DNA from: Chitinophaga pinensis | Lineage (GTDB): Bacteria > Verrucomicrobiota > Verrucomicrobiia > Limisphaerales > JAEYXS01 | Length of the DNA: 64,000 nt | Direction: 5' to 3' | Assembly (NCBI GenBank): GCA_943367715.1 | Contig: CALRJY020000029.1 | Coordinates: 41 to 64,040, forward strand | Translations under genes and position numbers: made by a program | Notes under the pieces: generated by a model | Database searches by the model: none | The model's input: the letters and a program-made list of their open reading frames with translations, nothing else | Told to the model about the DNA's origin: nothing | Shown: piece after piece, positions 20,313-34,994 of the stretch | Layout: every line of letters starts with the position of its first letter | How positions within the stretch are numbered: the first letter of the stretch is position 1

Positions 20313-22070
20313 TCAAAACCCCAACTGCACCGCGAGGTGTGCCCGGGAGTTATCGCCGCTGCGGCTCGCTTGGGAATCGCGAAGCTGCCAGCCGTAGGCG
20401 AAGTTAACGCTTAGATTCTGTCGAACGTTGTAGCGCCAGCCCACGCCCACGCTATGCAGATCCGTATAATGGCGTTCACCCACCAAGCGGTCGGTATTCC
20501 ACAAAACTGTGAAATCTTGGAAGCCATAGAACTGCAACGAATCGATGCCCTTGCCCAAGCCCAGAAGGTCCACCAAGGATATGCTCGGCAGCGCGAGTTC
20601 ATGGCTGAACAAGATGCCGTTATCACCGTAGGTCTCGCCTTCTTCGTAACCACGGACACTGCCGCTGCCACCGCCAGACATCTGCTCGCTGCCCAACAGA
20701 TTGCCCGAGGCGGTTTGGAATTGCCCGCGGGCAGACCAGTTCAATCCTAACGGCAACCGGGTCTGGCGGCTCGCATTCAATTGCAGATACGCATACTTCG
20801 CCTCGGCACCGGAACGGCTGATGTTTAAGAAAGCGTCTTCGTTGCGACTCGTAACCCCTCCCGGACTTAGGAAGACATTCAGCCCGAAATCAGTCCGCCC
20901 CCACTTGTCTTTCATGCTGACGTCGTAAGAGACGGCCAGTTGCGCGATGTGCGTCAGGTTGTCGGTCACCGGGATTGTCGCAAAAAGCACGTTGTTATCG
21001 CTCGCTTTGAAATCGAAGCCGAACGAGAAATTTTGCGTGATGCTTGGACTCAGGCGGGGCAAAGGAATGTCATAACGCAAACCAACCTGCCACGAGAGGC
21101 CGTGGAGCGTGAGCGGCGCGAGGACCCGGCCTTCCAGCTCAGAGTAAGCTCCCGTGACCCGCAGGCTATGCCGCCAAGGCAGGTCTATGGCGTAACTGCC
21201 CGAGTGGGACAGCGATGTCTCGAAGTCCGGGCTCGTGGTGAATTGATAACTCATCTGATGACCGAGACCGAAAGCGTTGCCCCAAGCAAAACCAGTGGTG
21301 AGCCGGTCTTCCGCACTGACCTCCGTTCCGGTGTTATTGTAACCGACATTCGCTCGGAATGGCAGGCGCTCATTGACGCGCAGATTCAGGTCGGTCGTGC
21401 CGGAGCGTCCACCCGGCTGCGCCACGACGGTGGCGTTGCGGAACGGGTTGCGGTTAAGCCAGTCGATGTCTTTCTTGAGTTGGGCGGCATTGATCGCCTC
21501 GCCGGGCTTTTGCGTGATGGCGGACCGGTAGAGCCGCTCGCTGAAATACTTGGCGCCCTCCACCTTGATGCTGTCCCCCGCCTTGCCAGCCATCACCACC
21601 ACTTGCACCGTGCCGCCGGTGATGTCCTGTTGTGGCAGGTAAACCGTGAAGAACGGATAGCCGCTGGCTTCCAGAAACGTGCGCGTCGCGAAGGTGATGC
21701 GCTGCAACGATTCAAACGAAGCGGGCCGGTCGAGGAACGGCTGCATCACCAGCGGAAACTGGGGCGCCTGGAGCAATGGAACCAGAGAAACATCCATCCC
21801 GACCAACGCCACGCCGTTGGTGATCACTTGCTCATGCAGGCTGAGGAATTTGATGCCGGTCAATTTCTGAAGCAGCACTTTCTCCCCCTCCTGCGCGCCG
21901 AAGTGAGTGATGGTTGGCACCGCGTTGGTCGTCGCGGGCACCAGCTTGGGCACGGCGGGCGGCAAGACCTTCTCGAGTTGCTGGGCGGAAAGCTGTGCCA
22001 CGGGCAGCAGCAGTGCCAGCCACAAGATATTTGAAAAGCGGGTCATGGATTTCAATGGTATGAACGTCAC
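20313..22070 (-). CDS. two-partner secretion outer-membrane transporter (TpsB; ShlB/FhaC/HecB family)
   Basis: 585 aa with signal peptide and a POTRA-like N-terminal part. The C-terminal barrel carries SEQMSGGGSGSVRGYEEGETYGDNGILFSHELALP, the classic ShlB-type motif. Its start lies 2 nt after the TpsA stop. Confidence 0.85.
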   Translation of the reverse strand: MTFIPLKSMTRFSNILWLALLLPVAQLSAQQLEKVLPPAVPKLVPATTNAVPTITHFGAQEGEKVLLQKLTGIKFLSLHEQVITNGVALVGMDVSLVPLLQAPQFPLVMQPFLDRPASFESLQRITFATRTFLEASGYPFFTVYLPQQDITGGTVQVVVMAGKAGDSIKVEGAKYFSERLYRSAITQKPGEAINAAQLKKDIDWLNRNPFRNATVVAQPGGRSGTTDLNLRVNERLPFRANVGYNNTGTEVSAEDRLTTGFAWGNAFGLGHQMSYQFTTSPDFETSLSHSGSYAIDLPWRHSLRVTGAYSELEGRVLAPLTLHGLSWQVGLRYDIPLPRLSPSITQNFSFGFDFKASDNNVLFATIPVTDNLTHIAQLAVSYDVSMKDKWGRTDFGLNVFLSPGGVTSRNEDAFLNISRSGAEAKYAYLQLNASRQTRLPLGLNWSARGQFQTASGNLLGSEQMSGGGSGSVRGYEEGETYGDNGILFSHELALPSISLVDLLGLGKGIDSLQFYGFQDFTVLWNTDRLVGERHYTDLHSVGVGWRYNVRQNLSVNFAYGWQLRDSQASRSGDNSRAHLAVQLGF

Positions 22071-22072
22071 AA

Positions 22073-34022: not shown

Positions 34023-34145
34023 AGTGGCAGAGCCATAGGATACCTGAACCGGATTCAGGGGCAAAGTTTCGCGAACCGTGCGGATTTCCCGTCTCCACTG
34101 GTGATTTCGGGAAAGGCGGTGCGGCCACAATATCCTTCGCTCGTT

Positions 34146-34994
34146 TCAAGGATTGCCCAACAACGTGATGAGATACTGGATCTCTGCCTCGACTTCGGCA
34201 GGCGATGATACCGTCTGCGCGATCTCCTCCCGGATGAGTTCACCATAGCGGCGCCGCAGCCGGAAGATGGCGGATTTCGTGGCCGCTTCGGAAAGCCCCA
34301 GCCGTGCGGCAACAGTAGCGTAAGAGTCCATGCCACCATTGCCTTGAAGAAAAACCTTCAATGCAGCGAAGCGTTCCGACAGGCCCTCGCGACGCGACTC
34401 CGCTTCCAGCTCAGCCAGCGCGTTGCTGACCACGGCCTGTGCCCAACGCCGGTCATAGAGGGACTCCGCCGAGGCATCATCCATCGGCTCCAACGCATAA
34501 CGCCGCTCGGGTTCCAGTTCATCCCACGAAATGAATTCCGTGCCACCGCCGCGCTTGAGCCGCTGGGAATCACGCCAGTCGTTGGCGAGAAAATGCTTCA
34601 ACGCCCCCAGCAGAAACGTGCGGAACCGCCCCCGTTCCGGTTGCGCCGTCTTCAGCGAATCGCCGACCAGCAAACGCGCGAAGAATTCCTGGGTCAGATC
34701 CTGTGCCTGATGTTCATCGTAGCCACGCCGACGGACAAATACATACAACGGATACCAATACTGACGGCAGAGAATCTCCAAAGCCGGACGCGCCGTATCA
34801 TCACCACCGCCCGCTTCCATTACCAAGCTCCAGCGCGTCGTTTGAAACACCGCGCGTTGCGATAGGGAAGGGTTACTCCCTTCGGCTGATTGGCTGACAA
34901 CTGGCACGCGTAACCTGTAATCAATCTCCCACAGAATATCCAGCACATCCCAACCCCTTGTTTCAGATAGAAAGAAGACCTCATCGGCACGCAA
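34146..34994 (-). CDS. ECF-type sigma-70 family factor (paralog of 6480..7229)
   Basis: YWYPLYVFVRRRGYDEHQAQDLTQEFF (region 2). ATVAARLGLSEAATKSAIFRLRRRYGE (region 4). Start uncertain: the conserved core begins at ..TTRWSLV, and a GTG at 34914 is an alternative to the ATG at 34994. Confidence 0.8.
   Translation of the reverse strand: MRADEVFFLSETRGWDVLDILWEIDYRLRVPVVSQSAEGSNPSLSQRAVFQTTRWSLVMEAGGGDDTARPALEILCRQYWYPLYVFVRRRGYDEHQAQDLTQEFFARLLVGDSLKTAQPERGRFRTFLLGALKHFLANDWRDSQRLKRGGGTEFISWDELEPERRYALEPMDDASAESLYDRRWAQAVVSNALAELEAESRREGLSERFAALKVFLQGNGGMDSYATVAARLGLSEAATKSAIFRLRRRYGELIREEIAQTVSSPAEVEAEIQYLITLLGNP

Follow-up and report, generated by a model that had tools for sequence, protein, structure and literature searches.

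A stretch of 64,000 nucleotides (the window; positions 41 to 64,040 of contig CALRJY020000029.1 in assembly GCA_943367715.1, deposited as Chitinophaga pinensis and classified in the Verrucomicrobiota) carries on its minus strand four co-directional genes, which encode an extracytoplasmic function (ECF) sigma factor, a Ser/Thr kinase, and the exoprotein (TpsA) and transporter (TpsB) of a two-partner secretion (TPS) system. The gene content of this array, called cassette 2 here, was read directly from a listing of open reading frames (ORFs) together with Pfam and NCBIfam scans (Table 1); the array has no match to any Rfam RNA family. An earlier reading of the sequence alone had proposed the order sigma, WD40 kinase, tpsA and tpsB, with a gap of 163 nt between the kinase gene and tpsA (30518-30680) and a tpsB gene that begins 2 nt past the tpsA stop; all four genes were found where they had been placed, and both distances were borne out. 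It had also described, on the plus strand, a cassette 1 in which a sigma gene and a kinase gene precede a giant exoprotein gene with an unrelated cargo, and this layout was recovered as well.

The sigma factor of cassette 2 (sigma2) has a match to Sigma70_r2, a weak match to r4_2, a match to the superfamily model TIGR02937 that falls just under the cut-off, and matches to Sigma70_ECF; it is ~250 aa long and aligns with the solved SigE, and both sigma factors of the window can be placed in the ECF family (group 4) on these grounds. Since the orthologous sigma factors described below are 243-250 aa long, the start of sigma2 is probably the inner GTG codon and not that of the longest ORF. The longest ORF of the kinase (kinase2) extends to 34130, and the public gene call gives the shorter protein listed in Table 1. 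It matches Pkinase (E = 2e-48) and, in its C-terminal part, WD40 propellers, its catalytic motifs VALK, HRDLK, DFG and SPE are all intact, and it has a single transmembrane helix (aa 344-374), which would place the ~740-aa WD40 region outside the cytoplasm. An extracytoplasmic WD40 region is the usual topology of planctomycetal WD40 kinases (PMC11032199). There is no ORF between the sigma and kinase genes in either cassette of the window, and no anti-sigma factor is co-encoded; the arrangement that defines kinase-linked ECF sigma factors, namely an adjacent Hanks-type kinase and no anti-sigma factor, is therefore found twice in the window.

TpsA and TpsB show the features of two-partner (type Vb) secretion: TpsA has a signal peptide and a TPS domain (PF05860, E = 3e-30; TIGR01901, E = 4e-21) with the motifs NPSL at residue 111 and NPNG at residue 129, followed by 19 copies of the MBG_2 repeat, and TpsB, which matches PF03865, PF08479 and PF07244, supplies the POTRA and Omp85 barrel portions directly adjoining tpsA. 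If the alternative start of tpsB is used, the distance from the tpsA stop is 26 nt. Near the C-terminus of TpsA, residues 2672-2766 (within 22073-22500) form an uncharged, hydrophobic block of ~95 aa rich in Gly, Ala, Ser, Thr and Val, whose length would suffice for several membrane helices, and a short acidic tail follows it.

The sigma factors of the two cassettes are 48% identical and their kinase domains 44% identical, so the two sigma/kinase heads are paralogs; judged by these identities, the circuit of cassette 1 is a paralog of that of cassette 2, with its own motif variant and another cargo. Direct repeats bracket cassette 1, each comprising an XRE-type helix-turn-helix gene (5757-6053 and ~19576-19944) and then a 131-nt leader (6320-6450 and 20000-20128; 82% identical, same orientation). 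What comes after the second leader is not a sigma gene but just the 3′ end of tpsB, which runs convergently. The bracketing repeats and this leader without a sigma gene suggest that cassette heads have been tandemly duplicated or recombined. Upstream of sigma2, a 28-nt stretch (35286-35313) also resembles 19641-19668, just upstream of the second XRE copy, at 89% identity and on the opposite strand. Immediately behind the giant gene of cassette 1, a small gene (19137-19613) has a weak match to PamT, a pilus protein of the candidate phyla radiation type, with an E value of 1.8e-5 that is far under the cut-off.

Candidate promoters of the kinase and cargo genes

Throughout the 64-kb window, the exact sequence GAAAC-N15/16-GTTCAGG occurs only upstream of the cassette 2 kinase gene and upstream of tpsA. 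The more relaxed form GCGAAAC-N14/15-(C/T)G(G/T)T is present in four copies, which occupy the short intergenic regions before each kinase gene and each cargo gene of the two cassettes. A tight bipartite regular expression finds only those four sites on both strands of the window, and eight sites in 1.13 Mb of other loci. On its own, the 7-mer GCGAAAC shows no enrichment in the window (17 found, 14 expected), so that only its position and its bipartite form are informative. One other copy, at 44104 upstream of a protoglobin gene, has no -10 half and was set aside as unrelated. In the element, a -35 block containing AAC is separated by 15-16 nt from a G/T-rich -10 block. ECF promoters are laid out in the same way, as exemplified by TGAAAC-N16-CGTA for sigma-W of Bacillus subtilis.

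A search with the sensor domain of kinase2 returned seven proteins at 51-75% identity, below which identity drops to 37% or less. Genomic contexts were taken for six of the seven (P0008, 51% identical and on a 3.5-kb contig, was left out), and a seventh orthologous locus, L089, was found through a TpsB search. The contexts are L081, L082/L083 (on the contig of L001), L084/L085, L086, L087, L088 and L089, with gene calls that are crude and based on our own ORF calling. The loci come from other metagenomes, and one ortholog lies in the 5.7-Mb ENA assembly ERZ25074309. As far as the contigs extend, all seven loci have the order sigma, kinase, TpsA (TPS domain and MBG_2 repeats, 2,379-3,029 aa) and TpsB, the TpsA ORFs cut by contig ends being identified by phmmer (E = 1e-125 to 1e-177). 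The flanking genes of these loci are mutually unrelated; the recurrence of the module in seven other loci with unrelated flanks implies that the arrangement is not due to chance.

When the complete loci were scanned, the exact GAAAC-N15/16-GTTCAGG sequence was found at 13 sites in eight loci, against 0.06 expected by chance, and one further site with a single mismatch lies in L088; all sites are upstream of the kinase gene or tpsA. P_kin is kept in all seven orthologous loci in which the upstream region of the kinase gene is present, and P_tpsA in six. The other 79 loci of the sigma family, 1.1 Mb in all, contain no exact copy. In intergenic alignments with L001, the motif block is retained and the spacers and surrounding DNA have diverged, and the consensus across the orthologs is cGCGAAACTyyc-N7-aaCGGTTCAGGwA. 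Both the conservation of the motif and its specificity for the module are thus observed directly. In L084 (4808-4900) and L089 (2835-2930), the tpsA site falls inside the 5′ end of the publicly called ORF; the TpsA alignment of these two loci is shifted by 45 residues, which shows that their starts were called ~45 codons too early.

In four orthologs, the spacer from the sigma stop to the kinase promoter contains strong hairpins (z from -2.4 to -5.5), and the corresponding spacer of the window has no significant hairpin (z = +0.78); no conserved terminator is therefore claimed at this position. In three orthologs, part of the tpsA leader downstream of the promoter is conserved and contains a small hairpin, GTCCC-N5-GGGAC; the leader in the window does not have this stretch.

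Table 1. Positions of the genes, candidate promoters and other elements in the window and in related loci (window coordinates unless a locus is named)
Feature	Position	Strand	Remarks
ECF sigma factor, cassette 2 (sigma2)	34146..34907	-	Probable start GTG 34907 (253 aa); longest ORF to TTG 34994
Receptor Ser/Thr kinase, cassette 2 (kinase2)	30681..34022	-	1,113 aa from ATG 34022; Cys4 N-terminus, Hanks domain, transmembrane helix, WD40 propellers
tpsA	22073..30517	-	2,814-aa exoprotein; signal peptide, TPS domain, 19 MBG_2, helical region, hydrophobic Gly/Ala/Ser/Thr-rich C-terminus
tpsB	20313..22070	-	Omp85-type transporter; POTRA and ShlB barrel; alternative (public) start ATG 22046
P_kin, ECF-type promoter candidate	34041..34072	-	GCGAAACTTTGCCCCTGAATCCGGTTCAGGTA; ~20 nt upstream of kinase ATG
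P_tpsA, ECF-type promoter candidate	30571..30601	-	GCGAAACTCTCCCCCTTAAATGGTTCAGGAA; ~55 nt upstream of tpsA ATG
Terminator-like hairpin	30615..30632	-	Between kinase stop and P_tpsA; consensus scan only, weak
Cys4 module, kinase2 N-terminus	33900-34022	-	
ECF sigma factor, cassette 1 (sigma1)	6480..7229	+	Alternative start 6438; paralog of sigma2
WD40 receptor Ser/Thr kinase, cassette 1 (kinase1)	7271..11026	+	1,251 aa
Collagen/BNR-propeller secreted fibre protein, cassette 1 cargo	11163..19127	+	2,654 aa
Candidate promoter before kinase1	7232..7263	+	GCGAAACCTTGGAAGCTTTTTCCGGTATAGCC
Candidate promoter before cassette 1 giant gene	11100..11132	+	GCGAAACCTTTCGGGAATTTTCCGTTAGTAGCC
Cys4 module, kinase1 N-terminus	7271-7400	+	
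Hairpins, sigma-kinase spacer of orthologs	L081 9871-9951; L082 9845-9953; L088 846-932; L084 1302-1379		
Leader hairpin stretch, tpsA of orthologs	L081 ~13545-13590; L082 ~13465-13510; L088 ~4525-4570		
Other regulators beside TpsAB	L090 1-3529; L092 1-1290; L091 2614-3390		L090 and L092 hybrid histidine kinase (Y_Y_Y/HisKA/receiver); L091 GerE/LuxR; Opitutaceae-type genomes

Heads and cargos across the sigma family

A pattern scan with an alignment of the two sigma paralogs over species-representative genomes identified at least 509 loci of the wider family; among the matches listed, most belong to Verrucomicrobiota and some to Planctomycetota and Acidobacteriota. Neighbourhoods were counted in 80 of these loci, with our own ORF calls and phmmer labels. 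A co-directional kinase gene directly follows the sigma gene in 64 of 86 sigma ORFs, and in 38 of the 45 informative pairs outside the window the next gene is again co-directional. The sequence-only reading had regarded the sigma/kinase pair as a portable head for very large surface proteins and had proposed a neighbourhood analysis of giant genes downstream. Such genes (at least 1,000 aa) are the next gene in 7 of the 45 pairs, against 5.5% of 490 background genes, an approximately three-fold enrichment that is not a rule; the head is portable, and "very large" is too narrow a description of its cargo. The next genes, as labelled by Pfam, encode mainly exported repeat proteins, many of them of 200-900 aa, including FG-GAP with cadherin, immunoglobulin (Ig) with DUF4932, NHL and PD40 propellers, RCC1 with LamG, a Peptidase_S74 fibre and pilin-like N_methyl proteins (L023, L033). 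A few look cytoplasmic (ankyrin, GNAT, Rieske-like).

A single promoter common to the whole family was considered and rejected, as the exact GAAAC motif is not general in the family and is replaced by lineage-specific variants. Many loci, among them cassette 1, L004, L015, L033, L077, L038, L028 and L023, have a bipartite element of their own that precedes the kinase gene and is repeated in front of the gene after it; that of L033, for example, is GCGCAACTTT-N13-TCCCAGTA. As far as these comparisons go, the motif variants follow the lineage of the adjacent sigma factor from locus to locus. The words most enriched upstream of kinase genes family-wide are TGTAAC/GTAACC/AACCTT (~17-fold). ECF-type -35 words precede the kinase gene in 30 of 64 cases and the next gene in 11 of 35; for the sigma gene the figure is 7 of 57, which equals the coding-sequence control (6 of 64) and represents no enrichment. 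The word set was partly picked from the kinase upstream regions themselves, so only the comparison of sigma genes with the control is unbiased.

The kinases of the family share a further feature: 60 of the 64 sigma-adjacent kinases (L001-L080) carry an N-terminal, zinc-ribbon-like module of the form CxxC-N8-24-CxxC[LIVMF], typically C(P)xCG...GLCPxCL, which matches no Pfam family. It is tempting to speculate that this Cys4 module is a sigma-docking element.

The TPS cargo is likewise found with other partners. Relatives of TpsB grade from 77% to 37% identity, and the closest, in L089, belongs to a kinase-TpsA-TpsB module with the motif. By contrast, a divergent hybrid histidine kinase adjoins the homologous MBG-type TpsA-TpsB pair in L090 (61%) and L092 (50%), and a GerE/LuxR regulator takes its place in L091 (56%). 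In these three loci, which serve as a negative control, the motif is absent upstream of tpsA, which implies that the motif travels with the sigma/kinase head. Because the nearest sigma relatives have other cargo and homologous TpsAB pairs have other regulators, heads and cargos are, by this comparison, exchanged and portable in both directions.

A proposed sense-and-respond circuit

The adjacent sigma/kinase pair likely controls the TPS operon, since the four genes form a conserved unit, a shared footprinted promoter candidate stands before the kinase gene and tpsA, and cassette 1 repeats the same logic. The proposal that the TPS system stands under a dedicated ECF/kinase module, which had been made from the window alone, gains support from these same observations. 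The genes probably constitute three units (sigma, kinase and tpsA-tpsB) instead of one operon, because candidate promoters precede the kinase gene and tpsA and not the sigma gene. We consider it probable that the locus is a self-contained sense-and-respond module, in which the sigma/kinase switch drives tpsA-tpsB through two matching promoters.

In such a module, the sigma gene would be expressed from its own, different promoter. The kinase would be a single-pass membrane protein with its WD40 propellers outside the cytoplasm, sensing a signal that we infer to be an envelope or external cue. Its cytoplasmic Hanks domain would activate the sigma factor, no anti-sigma factor being encoded; this activation most likely takes place by phosphorylation, by analogy with EcfP/PknT and EcfK/PknS (PMC8999054, PMC13147305). 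The active local sigma factor would read the motif and guide RNA polymerase to two near-identical promoters, of which P_kin would drive the kinase gene, with positive feedback via receptor abundance, and P_tpsA would drive tpsA-tpsB. TpsA would then be exported by Sec and through the TpsB barrel, and may function at the surface as a long MBG-repeat structure or adhesin-like filament.

Several points weigh against this module. The -10 block of P_kin lies only ~20 nt before the kinase start codon, as it does in nearly all orthologous loci, which implies a very short leader, and the terminator predictions are weak. Region 2.2 of sigma2 reads QAQDLTQE where the solved SigE has DAEDLTQE (9m9d alignment); at the DAED position, sigma1 has QSQD and the orthologs have xAQD, so that two of the three acidic residues are neutralized, the final Asp is kept and there is no Thr. 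The phospho-threonine signature of the ECF43 group (QTTA/STTA) is therefore absent and the sigma factor does not belong to that group, which makes the phosphorylation site, and even the mechanism, tentative. Candidate sites are a conserved N-terminal F-x-T-T-x-W-S motif and the Ser of the linker motif KRGGG-x-E-x-x-S-W-D. The sequencing runs that contain the locus are of lake-water metagenome DNA, with no RNA run among them. Finally, there is no motif upstream of the sigma gene in any of the eight loci scanned. This absence is atypical for ECF sigma factors, sets the loci apart from classical autoregulated ECF operons, and makes a third-party regulator possible.

An element read by another sigma factor or by a regulator encoded elsewhere, with the local pair as a fellow target or modulator, would account for a sigma gene that nowhere carries the motif, unlike classical autoregulated ECF sigma factors. 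This explanation is nevertheless unlikely, because the motif variants track the lineage of the adjacent sigma factor, the sigma gene stays with the conserved module throughout while the flanks change, and the bipartite layout with its fixed spacer of 15-16 nt, AAC in the -35 block and a G/T-rich -10 block fits ECF promoters. It is very unlikely that the genes are associated by synteny only, with the pair regulating something else, tpsAB expressed constitutively or under another input, and the motif a remnant of duplication: the gene after the kinase is indeed very variable across the family and in 7 of 45 loci runs in the opposite direction, but the -35 and -10 blocks are kept exactly in eight loci while the spacers diverge, unlike a decaying remnant, the four-gene order is kept in differing genomic contexts, and the motif is missing from homologous tpsA genes with other regulators.

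The exported product itself looks like an adhesin or filament of the FHA/HMW type rather than a toxin of contact-dependent growth inhibition (CDI). In CdiBAI systems the genes run cdiB-cdiA-cdiI, and a VENN-type pre-toxin motif and a polymorphic C-terminal toxin are accompanied by an immunity gene, whereas cassette 2 has the order A-B, no VENN-like motif, no ORF of immunity size or otherwise after tpsB, and a TpsA C-terminus that is homologous among orthologs and has not been swapped. A CDI-like toxin delivery module, with the kinase sensing neighbouring cells, would suit the giant TPS exoprotein and the faster divergence of its C-terminus (35-54% identity among orthologs, versus 80-85% for the N-terminus), but it is extremely unlikely in view of those four features and of a TpsA that lacks any related pre-toxin motif or toxin domain match. 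In FhaB/FhaC and the HMW1/HMW1B adhesins, as in the window pair, tpsA precedes tpsB, the TPS domain is N-terminal and has motifs of the NPNL/NPNG type, the passenger is long and repetitive, and the Omp85 transporter has POTRA domains. The window pair differs from them in a passenger made of MBG_2 repeats with a hydrophobic Gly/Ala-rich tail, and in its predicted sigma/kinase control, in place of two-component systems of the BvgAS type.

Relation to known systems and significance

Pairs of a sigma factor and a Ser/Thr kinase without an anti-sigma factor are an established class, comprising ECF43, ECF59-62, ECF217, ECF267 and ECF283 (PMC7826278). The sequence-only reading, as worded, is in this respect not supported: for ECF43, ECF59-62 and ECF217 the pairing was already established (PMC7826278, PMC8999054). 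In ECF43, the DAED of region 2.2 is lost and a phospho-acceptor Thr is conserved (QTTA/STTA), and the sigma factor is phosphorylated in EcfK/PknS of Xanthomonas citri and EcfP/PknT of Vibrio parahaemolyticus (PMC13147305, PMC8999054). Outside ECF43, the kinase-linked groups have retained a DAED-like motif and possibly act in another way (PMC8999054). The window resembles ECF43 in that an ECF sigma factor without an anti-sigma factor lies beside a transmembrane Hanks-type kinase with an extracytoplasmic sensor, and the X. citri pair likewise switches on a secretion system, the type VI secretion system (PMC13147305). Unlike ECF43, the window sigma factor has QAQD, with one acidic residue kept and no phospho-Thr, WD40 propellers form the sensor, a Cys4 module stands at the N-terminus of the kinase, the predicted promoter belongs to the kinase gene instead of the sigma gene, a TPS system is the cargo, and the host belongs to the Verrucomicrobiota. 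The groups ECF59, ECF61, ECF62 and ECF217 (Casas-Pastor et al., 2021) are similar in being sigma/kinase pairs without an anti-sigma factor from genomes of the Planctomycetes type; they have a DAED-like region 2.2 and have not been subjected to experimental tests (PMC7826278, PMC8999054). In the papers cited here, neither target genes nor a promoter layout are described for these four groups.

Control of a TPS system by an ECF sigma factor also has a precedent. In Pseudomonas aeruginosa, the sigma factor σVreI drives pdtA/pdtB, and expression of pdtA depends wholly on it (PMC7035377); here a tpsA/tpsB pair is under a dedicated ECF sigma factor whose gene lies close by, as is proposed for the window. 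The earlier statement that TPS loci are not classically preceded by a sigma factor of their own overlooked this case and is not supported as worded. Unlike the window sigma factor, VreI is part of a cell-surface-signalling system, depends on PhoB and is restrained by VreR, an anti-sigma factor in the membrane; the Ser/Thr kinase of the window stands in place of that anti-sigma factor. Kinase-linked ECF sigma factors and ECF control of a TPS system (σVreI-PdtAB) had therefore both been published. New here are the conserved sigma-kinase-TpsA-TpsB module in Verrucomicrobiota, the footprinted promoter candidates that would define its wiring (kinase and cargo genes, not the sigma gene), and the evidence for exchange of heads and cargos.

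It is possible but doubtful that the family found in Acidobacteria and in the Planctomycetes-Verrucomicrobia-Chlamydiae (PVC) group constitutes a distinct class of kinase-dependent ECF switch, combining a non-autoregulated sigma factor, feedback through the receptor kinase, an exchangeable exported cargo and Cys4 docking. In such a class, a sigma-dependent promoter would drive the receptor kinase, with feedback via sensor abundance, together with one adjacent exported-protein gene, and the Cys4 module would dock or hold the sigma factor in place of an anti-sigma domain. If this were true, the circuit would be a general plug-in for inducible surface structures, with TpsAB as one of its cargos.

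Verrucomicrobiota, Planctomycetota and Acidobacteriota have kinase-linked ECF sigma factors in abundance, as the size of the present family illustrates. Bench work has dealt only with proteobacterial ECF43, and in the papers cited here no targets or promoters are defined for the PVC groups. The locus offers a complete, compact and conserved circuit with a sensor kinase, a sigma factor, two promoter candidates and one clear output operon, and homologous TPS adhesin operons are attached to three different kinds of signalling head. It thereby bears on how giant surface proteins are switched on in phyla that are environmentally dominant and genetically little studied.

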